Source: an uncultured Flavobacteriales bacterium
GTDB lineage: Bacteria; Bacteroidota; Bacteroidia; Flavobacteriales; TMED113
Direction of reading: 5' to 3'
Length of the DNA: 64,000 nucleotides
Assembly: GCA_964435285.1 (NCBI GenBank)
Contig: CAYSYA010000002.1
Location: 129,135-193,134 of the forward strand
Shown here: positions 19,173-58,944 of the stretch, piece after piece
Layout: every line of letters starts with the position of its first letter
How positions within the stretch are numbered: the stretch's first letter is position 1
Notes under the pieces: model-generated
Told to the model about the DNA's origin: nothing
What the model saw: the letters and a program-made list of their open reading frames with translations, nothing else
Database searches by the model: none
Made by a program: the position numbers and the translations under genes

Positions 19173-22100
19173 ATGTTTATCAAAAAAATACTACTATTTC
19201 TCTTTTTTAGCTTATATATTTCATCTCAAAATAATGATGAAATAACTAATGCAATTCAAATATTTTGTGGTGATAATATAACATCTTCTACAGTCAATAA
19301 CAATTCAGATCAAGAATATTTGACATCTGTTGGTTTAAATGAATGTGGGACGACAGTGAATGAATCGTCAGGAGTTTGGTACATGATTTATGGTGATGGT
19401 CAAGAAATGGAATTAAGTATGTGTGAATCTTCTTATGATACAAAATTACATGTATTTAAAGATGATGGATTTAACTTAACGTGTGTAACTGGAAATGATG
19501 ACTCTGATTGCGAAAATTATTTACATTCAAAAGTCACTTTTTCATCTGAAGAAAATATAGTTTATTATGTATATGTTAGTGGATGGGGATCTTATGAAGG
19601 TAATTTCAATCTAAATCTTTCATGTTCATTTTTGGTAAATGGGTGTATGGATGAAGAAGCATGTAACTATGACCCTTTAGCCACTGATGATAATGATTCT
19701 TGTACTTATCCAAATGAATGTGATAATTGTGATGATGAATTATTTTGTGTTGGTTGTACTGACGTTTCTGCTATTAACTTTGAAACAGATAATGTTATTG
19801 AAGATGGATCTTGTGAATATTCGACAGTTTGTGCTGAAAACCAAGATTTAGTTTTTCTTTCACTTGTTTTCGGAAATTGGACTAGTGAAATTACATGGGA
19901 TATACAAAACGAAAATGGAGAAATAATTGCTAATAGTCCTCCACTGAATTCTTGGTATCAAGACTATGAGACTTATGGTCAATATCTATGTTTAAATGTT
20001 AATGAAACTTACTCTTTCAACTCATATGACACTTACGGGGATGGGTGGAATGGCGGTCTTTATACAATTAGCCAGTGTGATCTAGCTGTTGTTTTAGCCA
20101 ATAATAACGGAGAAGTTCCTCCAGGTTACGGAATAACTGAAGAATTCATGATGACTTCAGTTGATTGTAATTCATACGGTTGCACCAACCCTGATGCTTG
20201 TAATTATGATGCTACTGCTTTAATAGATTATGGTTGTGTTTTTTCTGATGAAATTATTGATTGCGATGGGAATTGTTACAATGATTTAAATCAAAATGGT
20301 ATATGTGACGAGAATGATATTTTTGGCTGTATGGATGACAGTGTTTCTAATTATAATCCTGAGGCAACTTTTGATAATGGTACTTGTTTATATGATGTTC
20401 AGTGCTCAAATACAGAAATTCAAATAGATGTTTTACTATCTACTGACAATTACCCCTGGGAAACTTCATTTATTTTAAATGATAATGGGGGAGTCGTTTG
20501 GGCTAATGAAGATGATGTTTTTTCAAGTGTTTATTCTGATTATTTATTTCAGTATTGTCTTCCTGTAGAGGGTTGCTATATTTTTACCGTTTATGATAGT
20601 TATGGAGATGGAATTTTTGACTCAGGAGGTCTACAAGTTTTCTATGAAAATGATTTAGTTTTAGAAAATCCTGATTTTTCTAATGAAGCATCTATAACAA
20701 TGAATTGCCCGCCAGGATACGATTGTAATACTGCCATTGAGGTGGAGTTAGGGGCATATCAAACATTATCTGACGATTTTTGGTACGTTTTTTCACCCAC
20801 TCAAAATGGACAGTATGAAATTAATACTTGTCAATCTGAATGTAATACTATTATTTATGTTTATGACTATTGTACAGGATTGTTACCAACTGAATCAAAT
20901 GATGCAACAATATATTATAACGATGATGAATGCGGCTTACAATCTCAAGTAAATCCTTTGTTTGCTGAAGGTGAATCTTATTACATAAGAATAAATGGAG
21001 ATTGTTCTGAGATTGATTGGGAAATCTCTTATGTTGGTCCTGTTGAAGGATGTATGGATCCAGCAGCTTGTAATTTTAACCCAATTGCTGAAGTCGATGA
21101 TGGTAATTGTTTATACCCTGGAGATCCTGATTGCACAAGTGGTCCAGACTTAGCAGTTTTGCCATTTGAAGATTCAATGTATTTAGAGGTTTATGAAAAT
21201 AATGATGGTTGCGCTATAGACGAAGGGTGTTTGAATGGTTATGGTACAAGATATCTTGTTAGATTTACCACATGGATTAAAAATATCGGTGATGAAGATT
21301 ATTTTATTGGTTCTGTGAATGATAATGAAGAAACTAATCAATTTGAATGGGATGAATGTCACAATCATTGGCATTATAAAGGATATGCAGAATACGTATT
21401 ATTTGATACTGAAGGACAATTAATCCCAGTTGGATTTAAAAATGGTTTTTGTGTAATGGATTTAGAATGTAGCGATGGAGGAACTGCTCAATATGGTTGT
21501 AGTATAATGGGTATTTCAGCAGGATGTGGAGATATTTATGGTGCGGGTTTATCTTGTCAATGGATTGATATAACTACTGTTCCAGATGGTGATTACACTA
21601 TGGTTGTAAGAACAAATTGGGATCAAGATCCTGATGCGCTAGGGAATGTTGAACTTACTTATGAAAATAACTGGATGCAAACATGTATAAGGGTAATTAC
21701 TTTAGAAGATGGTTCAAAAAATTATGTTCTTTCTACTGATTTAGATAATGATGGAATTGATAATATTAATGATCCAGATATTGATGGAGACGGTATACTG
21801 AATGGTGATGATGATGATATTGATGGAAATGGAATTCTAAATGATATTGATGATAATCCTTTTGGTTTGAGTGATTGTCCTTCATATACAGATTGTAACG
21901 GAGAAGAATTTGGTAACGCTCAATTAGATTGCAATGGTGTTTGTGGAGGGGAGGCTACAACAGGAGATTTGAATTTTGATGGTTTTATTGATGTTAATGA
22001 TGGACAAGAATACATTAATCAGATTATAAATAATGATATAACTCCAACAAATTGTACTGATTTAGACTCAGATGGTGAAATTACTGTTTCTGATATAGGT

Positions 22101-22871
22101 TTACTTGTAAATTGTATAAATAACTTTAGTACCATCACAAGAGATAACCAATCAGAACCTTGTCAATATGGTTTAGAAGTCACTAATCCAAATGATACTG
22201 TCTCTTTTGATATTTATGATTGGAATTTAGAAGAGGCTTATGTTGATATAAGTATTCAAAATCCAAACAATGAAGTATTAGGTTATCAATTTAAATTAGG
22301 TAATGAAGGAGTTATAATAACTGATGTTGAAAATTTAATTTCTGAGAATGATTATCCTATTACACCATCTTTTTCTGTTTATGACAATATGATTTTAGGT
22401 GTTTCATTACAAGATAGCTTAATTCAAAAAAATTATGATCCTGTTCCACTTTGTAGAGTATATTATTCATTACCTTTGGGGGTAAATATTGATGGTGATA
22501 ATTTTATATGTATTGAAGAAATAATCGATGTTGTTAATCAAGATTATGAAAATGTTATTTCTGTAAATAACACTGATGAATGTGAGCCATTCAATCAGTT
22601 TAATATTAACGAATTTGAAGGAATAACTAGTTTTGTTCTTTATCCTAATCCAACTTCAGATATTTTATATTTCAATATTTCCTTTGAAGAGAAAAAAGAA
22701 TTTGTTCTGTCTATATATGATTTAGTTGGTAATTTAATTTCGACTAAAAGTTATAATGCTAAGGATATTTCACAAGAGCTAGATTTTACATCACTTTCAA
22801 TGGGAATATATAACTTGACTGTTGACTATGAAAATGGTTTTATTAATAAAAAAATAGTTATTAAGAAATAG
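19173..22871 (+). CDS. T9SS-secreted multidomain protein with lysyl oxidase domain, Cys-rich repeats, TSP3-like and dockerin-like repeats and type A CTD
   Basis: Signal peptide; LOX motifs WDECHNHWHY, GFKNGFC, GCGDIY, CQWIDIT; five GC(T/M)x repeats; CTD LYPNPTSD...IYDLVG...GIY...KKIVI. Confidence 0.88.
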   Translation: MFIKKILLFLFFSLYISSQNNDEITNAIQIFCGDNITSSTVNNNSDQEYLTSVGLNECGTTVNESSGVWYMIYGDGQEMELSMCESSYDTKLHVFKDDGFNLTCVTGNDDSDCENYLHSKVTFSSEENIVYYVYVSGWGSYEGNFNLNLSCSFLVNGCMDEEACNYDPLATDDNDSCTYPNECDNCDDELFCVGCTDVSAINFETDNVIEDGSCEYSTVCAENQDLVFLSLVFGNWTSEITWDIQNENGEIIANSPPLNSWYQDYETYGQYLCLNVNETYSFNSYDTYGDGWNGGLYTISQCDLAVVLANNNGEVPPGYGITEEFMMTSVDCNSYGCTNPDACNYDATALIDYGCVFSDEIIDCDGNCYNDLNQNGICDENDIFGCMDDSVSNYNPEATFDNGTCLYDVQCSNTEIQIDVLLSTDNYPWETSFILNDNGGVVWANEDDVFSSVYSDYLFQYCLPVEGCYIFTVYDSYGDGIFDSGGLQVFYENDLVLENPDFSNEASITMNCPPGYDCNTAIEVELGAYQTLSDDFWYVFSPTQNGQYEINTCQSECNTIIYVYDYCTGLLPTESNDATIYYNDDECGLQSQVNPLFAEGESYYIRINGDCSEIDWEISYVGPVEGCMDPAACNFNPIAEVDDGNCLYPGDPDCTSGPDLAVLPFEDSMYLEVYENNDGCAIDEGCLNGYGTRYLVRFTTWIKNIGDEDYFIGSVNDNEETNQFEWDECHNHWHYKGYAEYVLFDTEGQLIPVGFKNGFCVMDLECSDGGTAQYGCSIMGISAGCGDIYGAGLSCQWIDITTVPDGDYTMVVRTNWDQDPDALGNVELTYENNWMQTCIRVITLEDGSKNYVLSTDLDNDGIDNINDPDIDGDGILNGDDDDIDGNGILNDIDDNPFGLSDCPSYTDCNGEEFGNAQLDCNGVCGGEATTGDLNFDGFIDVNDGQEYINQIINNDITPTNCTDLDSDGEITVSDIGLLVNCINNFSTITRDNQSEPCQYGLEVTNPNDTVSFDIYDWNLEEAYVDISIQNPNNEVLGYQFKLGNEGVIITDVENLISENDYPITPSFSVYDNMILGVSLQDSLIQKNYDPVPLCRVYYSLPLGVNIDGDNFICIEEIIDVVNQDYENVISVNNTDECEPFNQFNINEFEGITSFVLYPNPTSDILYFNISFEEKKEFVLSIYDLVGNLISTKSYNAKDISQELDFTSLSMGIYNLTVDYENGFINKKIVIKK

Positions 22872-36555: not shown

Positions 36556-37626
36556 GTGCTAGTAAACAAAAAAATAGAGAAATCAAGTACTATACATAGT
36601 AAATTTTATACGTCAGATTTAGTTTTTTCTGAATCAAAAAAAATTTTTGAAAATACTTGGCAGTTTGTTACTCACGAATCTAATCTTGTTGAGAAAAATG
36701 CCTTTCCTTTTAGTTATCTAGATGAATTTATTGATGAACCTTTAGTTATTATTAAAAATAAAGATGGTATAGTTAATTGTTTTTCTAATGTTTGTACACA
36801 CAGAGGTAATATTTTAGTTGATAAACACTCTGTTATTTCAAATAGTGTATGCTGTCGATATCATGGAAGAAAGTTTGATTCATCAGGTAAATGTATTTTT
36901 ATGCCAAAGTTTGAAAATGTTGTTGGTTTCCCCTCCAAAAAAGATGATTTAACAAATATTTCTGTATCAAATTGGCGTCAGTTTATTTTTTGTTCCTTTG
37001 GAAATAAATATAAAATTGAACATTTTTTTGGAGAATTGGAAAATAGAATTGGTTGGATGCCAATTGAAGATTTTATATTTACCCCTGAACTATCAAAAGA
37101 TTATGAAGTTAAGGCAAATTGGGCTTTGTATTGTGATAATTATTTAGAAGGTTTTCATATTCCTTTTGTACACCATGATTTAGCTAAGAAGTTTGAATAC
37201 GATGAATATTCTGTTGAGTTATTTCCGTATTCTAATTTGCAACTTGGAATTGGAAAAGATGGACAAGATTGTTTCAATTTACCTAAGTCATCAGTAGATT
37301 ACGGAAAAAATATTATAGCTTATTACTTTTGGGTTTTTCCAAACATGATGTTTAATTTTTATCCTTGGGGTCTGTCAATAAATATAGTCAAGCCAGTTTC
37401 TAAAGATTTAACAAAAATTGAATTTCGATCATTTGTTTGGGATGAAACAAAGCTAAAAAGAGGTGCTGGATCAGACTTAGATAAAGTAGAGAAAGAAGAT
37501 GAAGAAATAGTAGAGTCTGTTCAAAGAGGTGTGAATTCAAGATTTTATGATAGGGGAAGATTTTCACCAACTATGGAAACAGGGGTTCATCATTTTCATT
37601 CACTTTTAAGTAAGTTCATGAAATAA
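36556..37626 (+). CDS. Rieske non-heme iron oxygenase alpha subunit, choline monooxygenase-like
   Basis: GTG start; Rieske CTHRG...CRYHG; catalytic DNYLEGFHIPFVH and EDEEIVESVQRG; GRFSP.ME.GVHHFH. Confidence 0.88.
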   Translation: MLVNKKIEKSSTIHSKFYTSDLVFSESKKIFENTWQFVTHESNLVEKNAFPFSYLDEFIDEPLVIIKNKDGIVNCFSNVCTHRGNILVDKHSVISNSVCCRYHGRKFDSSGKCIFMPKFENVVGFPSKKDDLTNISVSNWRQFIFCSFGNKYKIEHFFGELENRIGWMPIEDFIFTPELSKDYEVKANWALYCDNYLEGFHIPFVHHDLAKKFEYDEYSVELFPYSNLQLGIGKDGQDCFNLPKSSVDYGKNIIAYYFWVFPNMMFNFYPWGLSINIVKPVSKDLTKIEFRSFVWDETKLKRGAGSDLDKVEKEDEEIVESVQRGVNSRFYDRGRFSPTMETGVHHFHSLLSKFMK

Positions 37627-45858: not shown

Positions 45859-48171
45859 ATGAAGAGTTTTATTTTTTTATCATTTTTTTACTCATTTTTT
45901 TTATTTTCTCAAAACCTACCAAGTCAGTACTATTTTTCTGAGGATGGAAATAGATTAATAAGAGGAGGATTGGATTTAGGTGGTTTTTATAATCAATCAG
46001 AAATAAAAACCATTTACTTATACTTTGATCAACCAAATTTTTGGGACATTCTACACAATAATTACTGTGATAAAATTAATATTCCCGCAACTTTGATTTA
46101 TGATGGACAAACATATGAAAATGTTGGTGTAAGATTTAAAGGACAAACTTCATATGCAAATACAAATGGTTCTCAAAATGGTGGTGGTCCTGGAGGAGGA
46201 GGTCCTGGAGGTAATAATGTTGATACAGATAAAAAGTCATTTAATATTGAGCTTGATTGGCAAACAAATCAAAATATTAACGGTTATGAAACATTAAACT
46301 TAAATAATTGCTACCAAGATCCTAGTTTTTTAAGAGAATTTATTTTTTCAAAATTATCTAGAAATTATATTCCATCTGTTCAAGTAAACTTCCTAAAATT
46401 AATGATTAACGATGAGGACTGGGGTATTTATCCAAACATTCAACAATTAGATAAAAAACATGCTGGGGAGTGGTTTTTTGATGATGAGTGCACTAGATGG
46501 AGAGCTGAAAACCCTAATAGTGAGGCTCCTGGTTGTGGGGATTCTTTTACAGGGGGAGGTCCTGGGGGAGGAGGTCCTGGAGGAGGAGGCCCTGGAGGAG
46601 GGGGTCCAAATTTTGGAGCAGGCACATCTTCTCTAAATTTTCTTGGAATTGATACTTCTTACTACTTAGAGCATTATAATTTAAAAAAGTCATACAAAAA
46701 TGATCCTTGGCAAGATTTAGTAAATGCTTGTATAGCTATTGAAAATGTTGAAAATTATGAAGACCAGTATAATGATATTAACGAACATTTTGATTTAGAT
46801 GCGGCTTTATGGCATTTAGCTGTCGAAATTATATTTTCAGATGATGACAGTTATATAAACAAAGGAGGAATGGATTATTATGTTTATTTCGATAAATTTA
46901 ATAACAGGATATTACCAATTGAATATGATGGAAATACAGTTTTTGGTAATATTAATTGGAGTCCATTTTATAATGAAAATAACTCCGATTTTGCTCTTTT
47001 AAATAAATTGTTAGCTATACCAGAATTTAGACAAAGGTATTTAGCTCACTTTAGAACTATTTTAAATCAATGTTTTGAGGAAAATTATATTAATAATTTA
47101 ATTGATTATTATGCTGAATTCATTAATCAAAGTGTTTATGATGATCCTAAAAAGATATATTCTTATGTTAATTTTCTAAATGAAGTAGAAGAATTAAAAG
47201 AATATTTTCAAGAAAGAAAATCTTATTTATTATCAAATGATGAGGTCAATCAGGAATCGGTAGAATTTGAAAGTGTGGTTTACTCGGTTAATGGTGTTAA
47301 TTTTTCTCAACCAAGTTCTTTAGATGAAACTTTAGTTTCAGTAATTTTAGATTCTCCAGATTTAGTAGATCAAGTAAATTTATATTACGGTTCTGGTTTT
47401 ACAGGTCATTTTGAAAAAGTGCAAATGGAAAATAATTTGAATTATTATTTTTACAATATTCCTGCTCATGACCCTGGTCAATATGTTAGATTCTACATAG
47501 AAATAATTGATAAAAATGGTGTTAGGAAATATAATCCCGAAGGCGCTGAACATGATGTATATATATATCAAGTAAAAATGAACCAAGATTTGTTTAGTGA
47601 TATTGTTATTAATGAGATTATGGCTTCTAATGATTTTACTGCTGTTGATGAATTTGGAGAATTTGATGATTGGATTGAGATTTATAATAAAGGAAATGAG
47701 TCAATAAATTTGTCAGGTTATTTTCTATCTGATGATCTTAATAATTTAACAAAATATACTTTTCCAGACGTTATTTTAGACCCCGATCAATATTTCATTG
47801 TTTGGGCGGATGATGATGAAGAAGATCAAGGAGATTATAATCATGCTACATTTAAATTATCTGCCTCTGGAGAATCAGTATATTTATCTGATGAAAATCT
47901 AAATTTAATTGATAATTGTGTGTTTGGTGAGCAACAAACAGACCAAGGTTTTGCACGTGTACCTAACGGATTTGGAGATTTTGTTATTCAAGCTCCTTCA
48001 TTTAATTATAATAATGATTTAATATCATCAACTTTGGACGGCTCTAATAATCAAAAAAAACTTATAAAAGTTATTGATATTTTAGGTAAAGAATTAACTA
48101 AGAATATTGATGGAATTCAAATTGAAATTTTTAATGATAATACTGCTGTAAAAAAGTTTAAATTAAGATAA
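45859..48171 (+). CDS. Secreted CotH kinase with GPGGG insertions, lamin-tail domain and short CTD-like tail
   Basis: Signal peptide; VGVRFKGQTS, KKSFNI, LNLNN, FLRE; LTD VINEIMASN...DWIEIYN...LSGYFLSDD; tail LIKVIDILGKE. Confidence 0.88.
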   Translation: MKSFIFLSFFYSFFLFSQNLPSQYYFSEDGNRLIRGGLDLGGFYNQSEIKTIYLYFDQPNFWDILHNNYCDKINIPATLIYDGQTYENVGVRFKGQTSYANTNGSQNGGGPGGGGPGGNNVDTDKKSFNIELDWQTNQNINGYETLNLNNCYQDPSFLREFIFSKLSRNYIPSVQVNFLKLMINDEDWGIYPNIQQLDKKHAGEWFFDDECTRWRAENPNSEAPGCGDSFTGGGPGGGGPGGGGPGGGGPNFGAGTSSLNFLGIDTSYYLEHYNLKKSYKNDPWQDLVNACIAIENVENYEDQYNDINEHFDLDAALWHLAVEIIFSDDDSYINKGGMDYYVYFDKFNNRILPIEYDGNTVFGNINWSPFYNENNSDFALLNKLLAIPEFRQRYLAHFRTILNQCFEENYINNLIDYYAEFINQSVYDDPKKIYSYVNFLNEVEELKEYFQERKSYLLSNDEVNQESVEFESVVYSVNGVNFSQPSSLDETLVSVILDSPDLVDQVNLYYGSGFTGHFEKVQMENNLNYYFYNIPAHDPGQYVRFYIEIIDKNGVRKYNPEGAEHDVYIYQVKMNQDLFSDIVINEIMASNDFTAVDEFGEFDDWIEIYNKGNESINLSGYFLSDDLNNLTKYTFPDVILDPDQYFIVWADDDEEDQGDYNHATFKLSASGESVYLSDENLNLIDNCVFGEQQTDQGFARVPNGFGDFVIQAPSFNYNNDLISSTLDGSNNQKKLIKVIDILGKELTKNIDGIQIEIFNDNTAVKKFKLR
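46180..46212 (+). repeat. 15-bp tandem repeat encoding (GGGP)/GPGGG, block 1
   Basis: ggtggtggtcctggaggaggaggtcctggaggt. Confidence 0.85.
46552..46608 (+). repeat. 15-bp tandem repeat encoding GPGGG x3 plus a final GP, block 2
   Basis: gggggaggt cctgggggaggaggt cctggaggaggaggc cctggaggagggggt cca; locally very GC-rich in an AT-rich genome. Confidence 0.9.
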
Positions 48172-51919: not shown

Positions 51920-52990
51920 ATGAATCCCTTTTCTTTTATTAAAAGTTTAATACCATTTCAATACTCATTTTCTTATATTTTTTTTGTTTTTGGTTGGGTT
52001 AGTTTTTTTTACTCAGGTTTATTTTCTTACTCATTAATTTTATTTGCTTTTGTCTTTCTACCAATTTTAGAACTTTTAACTCCTCCTGGTTTTAAGTTTT
52101 TTCAAGGTTTAGATACTAAAAAAGATAGTTTTATTTATGACTTAATACTTTATTTTACAGTTTTTTTACAAATAGTATCACTGATTTTTTTTCTATTTGT
52201 AATCAACTATTATGATTTATCTGCTTATGAGTTAGTTGGAAAAGTTTTAGCAATGGGAACTTTATGTGGTCATTCAATCAATATAGCTCATGAATTAGGT
52301 CATAGGTCAAATAAGTTCGATCAATTTTTGTCTAAAACACTGCTCTTAACAAGTTTATATATGCATTTTTTTATTGAACATAACAAAGGACACCATGTAA
52401 GGGTTGGCACACACAGTGATCCAGCAACAGCACGAAAAGGTGAATGGTTGTATTTCTTTTTTGTTAGATCAATTATTTTTCAGTATATATCTGCTTGGAA
52501 AATTGAATTTAAAAGACTAAAAATGAAAAAAAAATATTTTTTTTCACTTAATAATGAAATGATTCAGTTTACTTTAATTCAACTTTTTTTAATTCTTACC
52601 ATCTTCTACTTAAATATTTTTTCAGGTATAATGTTTTTATTTTCCGCGTTTTTTGGAATCATTTTACTTGAAACAATAAATTATGTTGAACACTATGGGT
52701 TAGTAAGAAATTTGAAATCAAATGGTAGACATGAGGCATTATCTGAATTTCATTCTTGGAACTCAGATTTTATTTTAGGAAGATTATTACTCCATCAATT
52801 AACGTTACATTCAGACCACCACTTAAAAGCATCGAAAAAATATCAAAAATTAGAAAATATATCCAATGCTCCTAAACATCCTAGTGGTTATCCAGGTATG
52901 ATGGTATTGGCTTTTTTTCCCCCACTATGGTTTTTTTCCATGAACCCTTTAGTTAATAAGTACAGAATTAAATCAAAAAAAAAAAAATAA
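51920..52990 (+). CDS. alkB: Alkane 1-monooxygenase (AlkB) family non-heme di-iron membrane enzyme
   Basis: All His boxes present: AHELGH, EHNKGHH, NYVEHYGL, LHSDHH; multiple TM segments. Confidence 0.92.
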   Translation: MNPFSFIKSLIPFQYSFSYIFFVFGWVSFFYSGLFSYSLILFAFVFLPILELLTPPGFKFFQGLDTKKDSFIYDLILYFTVFLQIVSLIFFLFVINYYDLSAYELVGKVLAMGTLCGHSINIAHELGHRSNKFDQFLSKTLLLTSLYMHFFIEHNKGHHVRVGTHSDPATARKGEWLYFFFVRSIIFQYISAWKIEFKRLKMKKKYFFSLNNEMIQFTLIQLFLILTIFYLNIFSGIMFLFSAFFGIILLETINYVEHYGLVRNLKSNGRHEALSEFHSWNSDFILGRLLLHQLTLHSDHHLKASKKYQKLENISNAPKHPSGYPGMMVLAFFPPLWFFSMNPLVNKYRIKSKKKK

Positions 52991-55491: not shown

Positions 55492-55968
55492 ATGAAAACA
55501 ATACACGATTGGTTTGATGAATATGGTCAAAGTCATCAAAATAAAACAAATAAAATCATTCATTGGATTTGTATTCCACTAATTTTTTGGAGCATTATTG
55601 CATTATTATCTATAATTCCTCAACAATTTATAAAAATAGGTAGTGAATATAATTTTTTACATTTTGGTACAATAGTTATTATTTTGGGATTATTTTTTTA
55701 TTTAAGATTATCTTTTAAAATTTTTCTTGGGATGTTTGTCTTTTCTTTATATGTTTTACTTGATGTTTACTTTTGGGATACGGTTTTTGGAAGAGATGTT
55801 TTAATGTTTTTAGCGATTAGTATTTTTGTATTTTCTTGGATACTTCAATTTTATGGTCATAAAATTGAAGGTAAAAAACCCTCATTTGCAAAAGATATTC
55901 AGTTTTTATTAATTGGTCCAGCTTGGTTACTTGGTTATATTTATAAAAAAATTGGAATTAAATTTTAG
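55492..55968 (+). CDS. Mpo1-like (DUF962) membrane protein
   Basis: YGQSHQN..N..IHWICIP, QFYGHKIEGKKPSF, LLIGP. Confidence 0.88.
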   Translation: MKTIHDWFDEYGQSHQNKTNKIIHWICIPLIFWSIIALLSIIPQQFIKIGSEYNFLHFGTIVIILGLFFYLRLSFKIFLGMFVFSLYVLLDVYFWDTVFGRDVLMFLAISIFVFSWILQFYGHKIEGKKPSFAKDIQFLLIGPAWLLGYIYKKIGIKF

Positions 55969-55970
55969 TT

Positions 55971-56735
55971 ATGGTAGATATTTTTAAAGAGGAATTAAAT
56001 GTTTCTCAAGATGAAAAAGTTCCTTCAATAGACAGAGGAGAGTTTATAAAAGTAGTTGAAAGTAGAAGAAGTGTAAGGGTTTATAATGATGAAAAAATTC
56101 CTGAAAAAGATATTCAAAAATGTTTAGATTTAGCATTACTTGCTGCTAACTCATCAAATCTTCAAGCATGGCAATTTTACTGGGTGAAATCAAATGAAAA
56201 AAAGAAAAAATTAGTTAAGTATTGTTTAAATCAACCAGCAGCTAGAACAGCCCAAGAATTAATTGTTTGTGTAGCTAAACCAAGTGCTTGGAAAAAAAAT
56301 AGCAAAAAAATGTTAGAATTACTTAACTCTAAAGGTAATCCCCCTGAGGCTGTTGTAAATTATTATAAAAAAATAGTTCCATTAGCTTATGACCAAGGAT
56401 TTTTAGGAATAAAGGGTTTTTTAAAAAAAATTGCAATTTTCTTTTTAAGTTTTTCAAAACCTATTCCAAGGGAGCCAGTTTCTTTTTCTGATATGAAAGT
56501 TTGGTCACAAAAAACAACCGCATTAGCTTGTCAAAACTTAATGCTTTCATTAAGAGCGTTTGGATATGATTCTTGTCCAATGGAAGGTATTGATTCTGCA
56601 AGAATAAAATCTTTATTAAATCTTCCAAAGTCAGATCAGATTTGTATGGTTATTAGTGCAGGTAAAAGAGCATCAAATGGTGTTTATGGAAAAAGAATTA
56701 GGTTCAACAGAGAAGATTTTATCAAGATAGTTTAA
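55971..56735 (+). CDS. Nitroreductase family protein
   Basis: SRRSVR, LAANSSNLQAW, QNLMLSLRAFGYDSCPMEG. Confidence 0.88.
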   Translation: MVDIFKEELNVSQDEKVPSIDRGEFIKVVESRRSVRVYNDEKIPEKDIQKCLDLALLAANSSNLQAWQFYWVKSNEKKKKLVKYCLNQPAARTAQELIVCVAKPSAWKKNSKKMLELLNSKGNPPEAVVNYYKKIVPLAYDQGFLGIKGFLKKIAIFFLSFSKPIPREPVSFSDMKVWSQKTTALACQNLMLSLRAFGYDSCPMEGIDSARIKSLLNLPKSDQICMVISAGKRASNGVYGKRIRFNREDFIKIV

Positions 56736-56740
56736 ATTTT

Positions 56741-56748
56741 TATCTTTG
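56741..56748 (+). promoter_or_regulatory. -7 promoter element (TATCTTTG)
   Basis: Exact TAnnTTTG match that overlaps the track's TTG start, favouring ATG at 56773. Confidence 0.5.
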
Positions 56749-56772: not shown

Positions 56773-58944
56773 ATGAAAAAAATTATATTTCTATTAACAT
56801 ATCCTTTTATTTTATTTTCTCAAGTTAACTTTAGTGAAGATATTTCATCAATTATATATAATAATTGTACTGAATGCCATAGGCCGGGACAATCAGGTCC
56901 AATGCCATTTACTAATTATTTAGAGGTAGCTGCTTTTGGAAACATGATTAATTATGTAACTGCTATTGATTACATGCCTCCTTGGCATGCTGATACAGAA
57001 TATTCTTCTTTTCTTGGAGAAAGAGGTTTAACAGATGATGAAAAAAATTTAATTAACGAATGGGTTACTAACGGAATGCCTCAAGGTGATCCTTTACTTG
57101 AAGCACAGATTCCAAATTTCCCAGAGGGTTCTGCAATTGGTACACCTGATGCTGTTTTCACAATGGAGGAAGAATATTTGATTGAAGGAAATAATCAAGA
57201 TGATTATAGAGTTTTTGTTTTTGAAACAAATTTTCCTGAAGATAAATATTTAAAATCTATTGAGATTATTCCTGGTAATTATGCTGCTGTTCATCATGTT
57301 TTAATCAATATTGATGATGGTGCATGCGCGGCAATTGATGCTACTACTCCTGAATATGGTTATGAGTGTGAAAGTGGTTTTTGTACAGGTGAAATTCCTC
57401 AGATATCAGCTGGATATACTCCGGGAATGGTTCCCCCAGTTTGGAATAATGATGTTGGGATGTTACTTCCTGCAGGTGCAGATATATCTATTCAAATGCA
57501 TTATGCCCCAAGTCCTATAGACCAATATGATCAATCTACAGTTAATTTATTTTTTAAAGAACAACCTGTTTTAAGAGAAATACAAGTAGAAACAATTGTT
57601 GATACTCAATTATTTATTCCAGCCAATGAATTATATGAACACTATGTTTCTTTTGAAATAGAGGAAGATATTAGTTTAATTAGTATTCTACCTCACATGC
57701 ATTTAATTGGTAAGTCATGGCTTGTTTATGCAGAAAATAATGGAGATACAATTCCAATTATAAGTATTCCAGAATGGGATTTTAACTGGCAAAGTTTTTA
57801 TCAACCTGAATATATGTTAAAATTACCTCAGGGATACACTCTTCATGCTTATGCTACTTATGATAATACTGCTAATAATCCACTAAACCCTAATTCACCA
57901 CCTCAAAATATGTATTGGTGCGATTATACAACTTGTGAAATGTTTTTTCTTCCATTTGCCTATGTTGAGTATCAAGAAGGAGATGAAAATATATACCTAG
58001 GAAACAGCGAAGATTTAGGATGTACTGATTTAAATGCTTGCAATTATAATCCAAATGCAATAATTGATGATGGTAGTTGTGGAATATCAGATGATTGTGG
58101 AGAATGTTTTGTTCCATGTTGTTATAATTTTGAAACTGAAACATGTGATCAAACAGTAAGTCAACAAGACTGTGAATATTTTTGGGCTGATTATAGTATA
58201 ATTTCTGATCCAGAACAAAATATATTTTGGAATTTGAGTTGTAATTCAGGTTGTACAGATCCTTTAGCTTGTAACTATGATTCAACAATTTTACCTGGTG
58301 GTTTTGACGATGGTTCATGTGTTTTTGTTGATGGTATATGCGATACATGTGAAAATGGTGTTGTAATTGATAATGATGCTGATAATGATGGAATCTGCAA
58401 TGGTGATGAATTAGAAGGCTGTACAGACCCTCTAGCTTGTAATTACAATGAATTTGTAACAAATGATGATGGAAGTTGTGAATATGCTCCAGAGTTTTAT
58501 GACTGTGAAGGTAACTGTTTACAAGACTTGGATGAAGATGGAATTTGTGATGAATGTAATAGTTTTGAAAATATGGTTGTTGATTGTGAATGTGAATTTT
58601 TAGATCCGGCTACCTACACTGTATTTTTTACAAATGTCATTGAAAGTGATTGTATTTTAATTGAAGATTGTTATTGTGAATGTATTAGTGATTTAGATGA
58701 AGATGATATTTGTGATGAAAATGACAATTGCCCTGATGAGTATAATCCAAATCAAGAAGATTCAAACGATGATGGAATAGGTGATGCGTGTGACCAAACT
58801 AGTTTGAATGAAAATATCAGTAATAGAAAATTAATTAAAGTTGTTGATATTCTTGGAAGAGAAGTTAGGGAATTAAATAAATATACTCTTTTATTTTATG
58901 TTTATGATAACGGAGAAATTATTCCAAATTACATCATCAAATAA
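56773..58944 (+). CDS. Secreted CxxCH + copper type II (PHM/DBH-like) monooxygenase with Cys-rich repeats and short CTD-like tail
   Basis: Start moved to ATG 56773 (MKKIIFLL signal peptide); CTECH; VHHVL, QMHY, PHMH, CEM copper ligands; three GCTD repeats; TSP3-like DxDxDG motifs. Confidence 0.85.
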   Translation: MKKIIFLLTYPFILFSQVNFSEDISSIIYNNCTECHRPGQSGPMPFTNYLEVAAFGNMINYVTAIDYMPPWHADTEYSSFLGERGLTDDEKNLINEWVTNGMPQGDPLLEAQIPNFPEGSAIGTPDAVFTMEEEYLIEGNNQDDYRVFVFETNFPEDKYLKSIEIIPGNYAAVHHVLINIDDGACAAIDATTPEYGYECESGFCTGEIPQISAGYTPGMVPPVWNNDVGMLLPAGADISIQMHYAPSPIDQYDQSTVNLFFKEQPVLREIQVETIVDTQLFIPANELYEHYVSFEIEEDISLISILPHMHLIGKSWLVYAENNGDTIPIISIPEWDFNWQSFYQPEYMLKLPQGYTLHAYATYDNTANNPLNPNSPPQNMYWCDYTTCEMFFLPFAYVEYQEGDENIYLGNSEDLGCTDLNACNYNPNAIIDDGSCGISDDCGECFVPCCYNFETETCDQTVSQQDCEYFWADYSIISDPEQNIFWNLSCNSGCTDPLACNYDSTILPGGFDDGSCVFVDGICDTCENGVVIDNDADNDGICNGDELEGCTDPLACNYNEFVTNDDGSCEYAPEFYDCEGNCLQDLDEDGICDECNSFENMVVDCECEFLDPATYTVFFTNVIESDCILIEDCYCECISDLDEDDICDENDNCPDEYNPNQEDSNDDGIGDACDQTSLNENISNRKLIKVVDILGREVRELNKYTLLFYVYDNGEIIPNYIIK

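Follow-up and report, generated by a model that had tools for sequence, protein, structure and literature searches.

A predicted cytochrome c domain fused to a remote bacterial homologue of the PHM/DBH two-copper monooxygenases

The gene described here lies in a 64,000-nucleotide stretch of the genome of an uncultured Flavobacteriales bacterium (GenBank assembly GCA_964435285.1, contig CAYSYA010000002.1, positions 129,135 to 193,134); this whole stretch is called the window below, and positions are counted from its first letter. The encoded protein consists, in order, of a signal peptide, a cytochrome c domain, a PHM/DBH-like two-copper core, Cys- and Asp-rich modules and a short tail. Conservation, predicted fold and profile alignment together establish that the copper core is a true, remote homologue of PHM and DBH, and the domain in front of it is likely a His/Met mono-haem c domain, to judge from its motifs and from transitive homology. 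We think it fairly probable that the haem would pass electrons to the copper site CuH, and CuH to the copper site CuM, for the hydroxylation of a probably hydrophobic, non-peptide substrate. The catalytic core is of a known kind; an obligate fusion to haem c, together with a thioredoxin-fold partner, has not been described for such a core.

The gene is an intact open reading frame (ORF) in a single frame, as found both in the ORF list and by direct reading of the DNA (Table 1). The listed ORF starts with a TTG at 56746; the MKK of the homologues matches the ATG at 56773 instead. A preliminary description of this DNA, made from the letters alone, had ended the gene at 57960. That end was wrong, and the frame continues for another 330 codons to 58944. 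The metal-binding positions that it had named were all recovered when the DNA was read: the CTECH behind the signal peptide (TGT ACT GAA TGC CAT), the His-His pair of CuH (CAT CAT; H174 and H175), the third CuH histidine (CAT at 57499-57501; H243, within Q-M-H-Y), the His-x-His of CuM (CAC ATG CAT; H308-M-H310) and the CuM methionine (ATG; M390, within T-T-C-E-M). The predicted protein has a near-identical public member, MEC8537993.1, which carries the NCBI name 'cytochrome c [Bacteroidota bacterium]'. The signal peptide was called by eye; this region is variable among the homologues, and conservation sets in at V18.

A homologue search with the window protein gave 2,728 matches, and alignments were built from 16 and from 62 of them, the latter set being 47-90% identical to the window protein. 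The two cysteines and the histidine of the CxxCH motif (C32, C35 and H36) and the six copper-ligand positions are invariant in both alignments, as are W335, D336, F337, W339 and Q340 among the 62 homologues. Successive ligand groups are spaced 68, 65 and 80 residues apart, compared with 64, 70 and 70 in PHM, and this match of ligand pattern and spacing is far beyond chance. When the family profile was aligned by hhalign with rat PHM, whose catalytic-core query sequence was confirmed to be identical to 5wm0_A residues 36-356, the probability was 93.5% (E 2.3e-7) and all six ligands were aligned. The two second-sphere glutamines of PHM, Q170 and Q272, fall on the invariant Q241 and Q340 in the same alignment; Q272 is the residue mutated in PDB entries 8DSL and 8DSN, both of which are among the structural matches given below. 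Local motifs also agree between the family and PHM (Q-M-H-Y with Q-V-H-Y, P-H-M-H-L-I-G-K with V-H-T-H-H-L-G-K, and T-x-x-E-M with S-S-D-E-M).

An AlphaFold2 model of residues 1-416, computed from the 62-sequence alignment, has a mean predicted local distance difference test score (pLDDT) of 88.5 and a predicted template modelling (TM) score of 0.82. The comparison of such a model with PHM had been proposed in the preliminary description, and the predicted fold matches PHM and DBH alone in the PDB. PHM and DBH account for every one of the first 31 Foldseek matches (E 8e-15 to 4e-11, target TM 0.38-0.70; human DBH at E 1.3e-14), and the next are unrelated viral jelly-roll capsid proteins at E>1e-6. 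By equivalence of its ligands the core would be loaded with two coppers, and the predicted enzyme would carry out O2-dependent hydroxylation of C-H bonds. The Pfam family Cu2_monoox_C is matched by 46 of the 62 homologues (best E 6.4e-8), and relatives fused to the partner described below reach 26-34 bits.

The haem domain has the helix pattern of a small class I cytochrome, with model helices at residues 20-31, 33-36, 49-54, 56-64 and 88-99. The candidate distal ligand, M68, lies in an invariant Y-M-P-P-W, within the 30-60 residues after CxxCH that are usual for a distal methionine, and is followed by the C-terminal helix with its likewise invariant W97. Another methionine, M43 (in GPMPF), was considered for this role and rejected: it is F, L or I in other members, whereas M68 is invariant. 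Pfam Cytochrome_CBB3 is matched at E<0.01 by 40 of the 62 homologues. A domain-only profile searched against PDB sequences gave 13 weak matches at E<10, nine of them c-type cytochromes; the best was the haem domain of hydrazine synthase alpha (E 0.0094), and a weak match to the Shewanella cytochrome ScyA (E 0.27) aligns both CxxCH and MPP. By hhalign, the haem-domain profile matches residues 203-296 of homologue P0262 (99.7%) and residues 26-116 of homologue P0256 (99.5%), and these two domains exceed the gathering cut-off of Cytochrome_CBB3 with 37.1 and 34.1 bits. On CxxCH and homology, haem would be covalently attached. The fusion of a CxxCH domain to a PHM/DBH-type two-copper core, as first proposed in the preliminary description, is upheld by ligand equivalence, fold and family-wide invariance.

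The family is very large and without known function. With clusters defined at 50% identity, the core alone (residues 113-416) recovered 6,788 cluster representatives at E<=1e-3 among 1.84 billion (3,714 at E<=1e-10 and 687 at E<=1e-30). A CxxCH motif lies upstream of the core in 121 of the best 150 core representatives, and the remaining 29 start in mid-domain and look N-terminally truncated. Since every apparently full-length member of the best 150 has the motif, we regard the haem-core fusion as an obligate and defining feature of the family. Whatever other modules are fused, the haem domain always stands directly N-terminal of the CuH domain. When a single genome was scanned for each species, the family was present in at least 592 of these genomes; among the matches listed the hosts are mostly Bacteroidota (Saprospiraceae, Flavobacteriales, Cytophagales, Chitinophagales and Fluviicola), and they include the isolate Hymenobacter sp. 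BT190 as well as Latescibacterota and Marinisomatota. The usual form is about 525 amino acids long and ends in a type A sorting domain of the type IX secretion system (T9SS). Public names of family proteins are 'cytochrome c', 'T9SS sorting domain protein' or 'hypothetical'.

Most relatives also have a conserved companion. Of the six distant loci examined first, five (L001, L002 and L005-L007) carry, immediately upstream and on the same strand, a thioredoxin-fold gene (AhpC-TSA/Redoxin) of about 175 codons, for example at L005:5437-5970. A profile of this partner found an adjoining same-strand copy in most of 80 genome loci (53 of L008-L087), and ORF clustering over 84 loci made it the sole conserved neighbour (58 of 84), with no other conserved neighbour that would hint at the substrate. 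In 66 partner sequences the first active-site cysteine and a C-terminal Gly-Cys are invariant, and the second cysteine of the CxxC is frequently S, T or A; the resulting layout, F-x-x-x-x-C-x-x-[CSTA], resembles that of TlpA and ResA. In other phyla the partner and the enzyme occur in single chains, ordered thioredoxin-fold, cytochrome c and core in P0293, P0332, P0352 and P0382 (the last on a contig of just 3 kb, whose context is uninformative) and cytochrome c, core and thioredoxin-fold in P0299; in P0262 the whole three-module unit is duplicated in tandem. These fused proteins are probably periplasmic, since their N-termini resemble membrane anchors and a T9SS domain is missing. Adjacency and single-chain fusion suggest that the thioredoxin-fold protein, the haem domain and the core work together, and the partner would be either a source of two thiol electrons for the haem or a factor in copper or haem maturation. 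The enzyme had been called self-sufficient in the preliminary description. We find no support for that term, because a mono-haem cytochrome c relays single electrons and is no source of them, and most relatives keep the thioredoxin-fold component.

We therefore propose the following as a fairly probable course of events. After Sec export, haem c would be attached covalently at C32 and C35, and its axial ligands would be H36 and M68. A linker of about 20 residues would join this domain to the catalytic core of two beta-sandwiches. CuH would be held by H174, H175 and H243 in one domain and CuM by H308, H310 and M390 in the other. The haem would accept single electrons from an outside donor and hand them to CuH, a route that would replace the ascorbate by which the animal enzymes are reduced. 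CuH would pass the electrons on to CuM, where O2 would be activated and a C-H bond of the substrate hydroxylated. The surroundings of CuM are predicted to be hydrophobic (L306, F391 and F392), and the substrate would not be a glycine-extended peptide. In most relatives the thioredoxin-fold protein may assist, whether as a two-electron thiol reservoir for the haem or as a copper- or haem-maturation factor.

A fuller version of this proposal, which we offer only tentatively and consider rather doubtful as a whole, is a bacterial, ascorbate-independent reaction of the PHM/DBH type in which a dithiol thioredoxin-fold protein, haem c, CuH and CuM form a chain that acts, within the envelope or extracellularly, on a substrate other than a peptide. 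The dithiol would be recharged from the cytoplasm and would give its two electrons singly to haem c, and the window clade would be a derived, disulfide-hardened and fully extracellular form that does without the partner.

Several results weigh against the relay from haem to CuH and CuM. The window protein itself stays below the Pfam cut-offs for both domains, with 15.6-16.4 bits against 23 for Cu2_monoox_C (residues 295-368) and 20 bits against 27 for Cytochrome_CBB3; a Pfam scan found no PF01082 match in it, and neither the protein nor the full-length profile recovered PHM from PDB sequences, the kinship being visible only by profile-profile and fold comparison. The haem domain modelled alone (pLDDT 87.6) draws no cytochrome by Foldseek (best E 2.8), and its hhalign comparison with Pseudomonas cytochrome c551, for which the query sequence was verified, is insignificant (16.7% probability); because of these two results, the haem assignment rests on motifs and transitive homology. 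No cytochrome c maturation (ccs/ccm) genes were found within the 64-kb window, so the capacity of the host for cytochrome c maturation rests on general knowledge: aerobic Bacteroidota mature c-type cytochromes by the System II synthase CcsBA. The partner gene was not found in the window by tblastn, nor at the two syntenic loci L008 and L009; the partner of the window gene may lie elsewhere in the genome. Outside the periplasm, an electron donor for the haem is not known. The C-terminal tail has no recognisable T9SS C-terminal domain (CTD), scoring 8.0 bits against the family CTD profile where shuffled tails reach 11.9. Finally, no paper on this family or on bacterial PHM-like proteins was found in a literature search whose coverage of subscription journals was poor.

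The partner also invites a different explanation, in which the protein would have no organic substrate and would instead be an oxidase or redox-defence module, with electrons from thiols or from a periplasmic cytochrome passing through the haem to coppers that reduce O2, peroxide, superoxide or nitrite. The sole conserved neighbour and fusion partner is indeed an AhpC-TSA/Redoxin protein that sources name 'peroxiredoxin' or 'redoxin', the substrate-binding residues of PHM are missing, and the CuM site of PHM binds the small ligands nitrite, azide and CO, as seen in PDB entries among the Foldseek matches. However, the Prx-type context P-x-x-x-T-x-x-C is missing from the partner, which has the TlpA/ResA-like layout and an invariant C-terminal cysteine instead, and the full PHM catalytic set, including the equivalents of Q170 and Q272 and the Met ligand, is invariant, as would be expected for C-H activation. 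T9SS CTDs or dockerins would also be odd secretion signals on a defence oxidase. We consider this explanation unlikely.

Alternatively, the CxxCH might form a disulfide or bind another metal, so that the helical domain would be a structural or substrate-binding cap and the coppers would be reduced by a small molecule such as ascorbate. The failures of Foldseek and of the c551 comparison, the scores of the window protein below the Pfam cytochrome cut-offs and the lack of maturation genes in the window would all fit this. Nevertheless, both cysteines, the histidine and M-P-P-W are all invariant, the last of these spaced as a distal methionine usually is; c-type cytochromes make up most of the weak PDB profile matches; the homologous domains of P0262 and P0256 exceed the cytochrome cut-off; NCBI calls near-identical proteins 'cytochrome c'; and, from general knowledge, System II would be at hand in aerobic Bacteroidota. 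On this balance a domain without haem appears quite improbable.

The preliminary description had counted peptide C-termini among the possible substrates, and since the fold and the six ligands are common to PHM and DBH, the protein could in principle be a true peptide-amidating PHM of bacteria or an orthologue of the dopamine or tyramine beta-hydroxylases. The residues with which PHM binds the carboxylate of its glycine-extended substrate argue otherwise: by hhalign, R240, N316 and Y318 align with L306, F392 and P394 of the window protein, and the family consensus (x-P-H-x-H and E-M-F-x-L-P) does not restore them. Because of these replacements we conclude that the protein is not a peptide-amidating orthologue, and peptide amidation was rejected as its function; the catalytic machinery is conserved, yet glycine-extended peptides are, as far as the residues tell, not the substrate, and peptide C-termini are unlikely. 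Identity to PHM is 13-17%, no PAL-like lyase was found near the gene, and there is no DOMON domain, all of which makes orthology with either enzyme very unlikely. That the protein is a catalytically dead, adhesin-like surface protein, its core a mere scaffold for Cys-rich and Ca-binding modules, is scarcely credible, for although the C-terminal half is long, variable and repeat-rich and its Cys-rich module recurs in another secreted protein of the window, it is the C-terminal modules that vary, and neither the metal ligands nor the second-sphere residues show any change from one phylum or architecture to another.

The C-terminal half of the window protein bears on its export, which we regard as probable. 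The Cys-rich repeats mentioned in the preliminary description are present as three C-x-D-x-x-A-C-N-Y...DDGSC modules that begin at 58021, 58252 and 58420, and they are followed at about 58684-58791 by Asp-rich, thrombospondin-type-3-like motifs with a partial NCBIfam match on residues 639-676. The module content varies between close relatives of 723, 775 and 849 amino acids. The tail, 35-40 residues long, stands in place of a 75-residue sorting domain and shares a D-x-x-G-R-x-V strand with true CTDs. It had been taken for a 'mini-CTD'; its conservation stands, and its identity as a T9SS signal was rejected, since it scores no higher than shuffled tails. Nor does Pfam find PF18962 (T9SS type A sorting domain) in the window protein, while two other proteins of the window score 43.7 and 33.8 on the family CTD profile. 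Among the 62 homologues 45 carry PF18962, and some others end in a dockerin, which indicates export beyond the periplasm. The protein had been described as secreted. As far as the N-terminal signal peptide, seen by inspection, and probable export are concerned this holds, and from the signals of its relatives we infer that it is located outside the cell.

The Cys-rich module recurs elsewhere in the window. At 19173-22871 (+) lies a gene for a 1,232-residue protein with a lysyl oxidase domain (PF01186; E 2e-28, residues 690-838) and a full T9SS sorting domain (E 6e-12), making it a second secreted 'animal-like' copper oxidase of the 64 kb. It shares the module as C-x-D-x-x-A-C-N-[YF]...DD-x-x-C in two copies, from 19644 and 21051, and this common possession with a T9SS-exported protein fits an extracellular life of the protein under study.

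Table 1. Features of the cytochrome c-copper core gene, with positions in the window.
Feature	Position	Strand	Basis or remark
Whole gene, 723 amino acids plus stop	56773..58944	+	ORF list; exact protein on 21 public contigs
Predicted Sec signal peptide MKKIIFLLTYPFILFSQ	56773..56823	+	Inspection: basic n-region, then hydrophobic stretch
Predicted mono-haem class I cytochrome c-like domain, residues 18-~105	56824..57087	+	Sub-threshold Pfam, transitive homology, model helices
C32-T-E-C35-H36, predicted haem c attachment motif	56866..56880	+	DNA; C32, C35 and H36 invariant in 62
M68-P-P-W71, candidate distal (sixth) haem ligand Met	56974..56985	+	Invariant in 62
N-terminal beta-sandwich, CuH domain, ~residues 126-262	57148..57558	+	Foldseek, hhalign to rat PHM, model strand pattern
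H174-H175 = PHM H107-H108, CuH ligands	57292..57297	+	DNA, invariance, hhalign
Extra core cysteines	57325-57384 and 57919-57936		C199, C204 on PHM C126, C131 (disulfide positions) by hhalign
Q241-M-H243 = PHM Q170-V-H172, third CuH ligand and conserved Gln	57493..57501	+	DNA, invariance, hhalign
C-terminal beta-sandwich, CuM domain, ~residues 263-410	57559..58002	+	Pfam Cu2_monoox_C, Foldseek, hhalign
H308-M-H310 = PHM H242-T-H244, CuM ligands	57694..57702	+	DNA, invariance, hhalign
W335-D-F-N-W-Q340, family signature; Q340 = PHM Q272	57775..57792	+	Invariance, hhalign
M390 = PHM M314, CuM thioether ligand, in T-x-x-E-M	57940..57942	+	DNA, invariance, hhalign
Cys-rich region, 32 Cys	58021..58812	+	Regex scan, Cys map
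Conserved C-terminal tail LIKVVDILGREV...YVYDNGEIIPNYIIK, possibly a shortened T9SS sorting signal	58825..58941	+	Kept in L008, L009, P0009 and P0012

The window protein belongs to a clade that is a derived form of the family. Its members have five core cysteines (C185, C199, C204, C383 and C388, an odd count) that are missing from other bacterial homologues, and a long, variable Cys- and Asp-rich C-terminal extension. The locus is syntenic with that of single-cell genome AG-343-M05 (L008), where genes for an outer-membrane beta-barrel, an Mpo1-like protein, a nitroreductase, the family protein, a patatin and an HlyD protein recur. The metagenome-assembled genome SAT30 holds two copies, one of the window type (L009) and one of the standard form, which has the partner beside it (L015).

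Other genes of the window are given here as observations in their own right. Several oxygenase or redox genes, at 36556-37626, 51920-52990, 55492-55968 and 55971-56735 (all +), encode the alpha subunit of a Rieske ring-hydroxylating oxygenase, a fatty-acid desaturase, an Mpo1-like dioxygenase and a nitroreductase. Of these, the dioxygenase and nitroreductase genes lie immediately upstream of the gene under study and are syntenic in L008. Protease-inhibitor modules are recurrent on secreted proteins of this organism: an 825-residue protein at 37882-40359 (+) combines a T9SS sorting domain with a motif of Kazal-type inhibitors, and the close relatives P0009 and P0010 of the window protein have a Kunitz/BPTI domain. 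Two CotH-kinase-domain proteins, one of them with a lamin-tail domain, are encoded at 40373-42184 (-) and 45859-48171 (+), less than 6 kb apart. The G+C content of the window is 23-35%, housekeeping genes are present (hisS, pckA, gyrA, clpB, bamD, rpoZ, coaBC and recN), and the identical protein is also encoded on public contigs 1.57-1.61 Mb long. Such features would fit a marine member of the Bacteroidota with a streamlined genome, for which metagenomes and single cells are the only sources.

Even in textbook copper enzymes such as PHM and DBH, debate continues over the way in which electrons reach CuH and cross to CuM, and both enzymes, being ascorbate-dependent secretory proteins of eukaryotes, are awkward to handle. 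With a haem c built in beside the CuH domain, a bacterial homologue would be expressible, and the entry of electrons could be triggered and followed optically. The conserved thioredoxin-fold partner offers a concrete handle on the physiological reductant. Because the family often carries secretion signals, an abundant oxidative activity of environmental bacteria may so far have gone unannotated. If the chain of thioredoxin-fold protein, haem c and two coppers is true, it would represent a new class of secreted oxidative enzymes in Bacteroidota and other phyla, with possible action on algal or dissolved organic matter.

Compared with known systems, the window protein is closest in its core to PHM (rat; PDB 1PHM, 1SDW and 3MLL). 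The two have in common two beta-sandwich domains, the CuH His-His...His and CuM His-x-His...Met ligands at similar spacings and the equivalents of Q170 and Q272, and Cys199 and Cys204 of the window clade fall on Cys126 and Cys131 of PHM. Apart from the low identity given above, they differ in that PHM has no haem domain and uses ascorbate as its reductant, whereas the window protein is bacterial, starts with a signal peptide, carries C-terminal modules of a secretion type, and lacks both the equivalents of R240, N316 and Y318 and a PAL partner. DBH, tyramine beta-monooxygenase and MOXD1 (human DBH, PDB 4ZEL) share the catalytic core and likewise have an extra domain before the CuH domain. However, the N-terminal domain of DBH is a DOMON beta-sandwich without covalent haem, where the window protein has a small helical CxxCH domain, and the dimerisation domain of DBH is missing from the window protein. 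The LPMO-like logic suggested earlier meets a difference of structure: an LPMO holds one copper in a histidine brace within an unrelated fold, unlike the two-copper, PHM-type core described here.

For the partner, the nearest parallels are TlpA, ResA and Sco. Sco-cytochrome c fusion proteins have reportedly been treated by Banci et al. in J Biol Inorg Chem in 2011. Like these fusions and the TlpA/ResA systems, the family teams up, within the cell envelope, a thioredoxin-fold module with a copper site and a predicted c-type cytochrome, and the F-x-x-x-x-C-x-x-C layout of the partner resembles that of TlpA and ResA. Unlike TlpA, ResA and Sco, the partner mostly lacks the second cysteine of CxxC and has an invariant C-terminal Gly-Cys; unlike Sco, it has no CxxxC...H motif, and its client would be a PHM-like enzyme and not cytochrome oxidase. 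The partner does not lie beside the window gene. Reduction of copper enzymes by cytochromes is itself familiar: the cytochrome domain of cellobiose dehydrogenase reduces LPMOs, and cytochrome b561 serves PHM and DBH via ascorbate in secretory granules. There, as proposed here, a haem protein supplies single electrons to an O2-activating copper outside the cytoplasm. Those systems, however, use haem b in a separate protein or with a diffusible shuttle, whereas in the window protein the haem is predicted to be haem c, in a domain covalently fused to the copper core.

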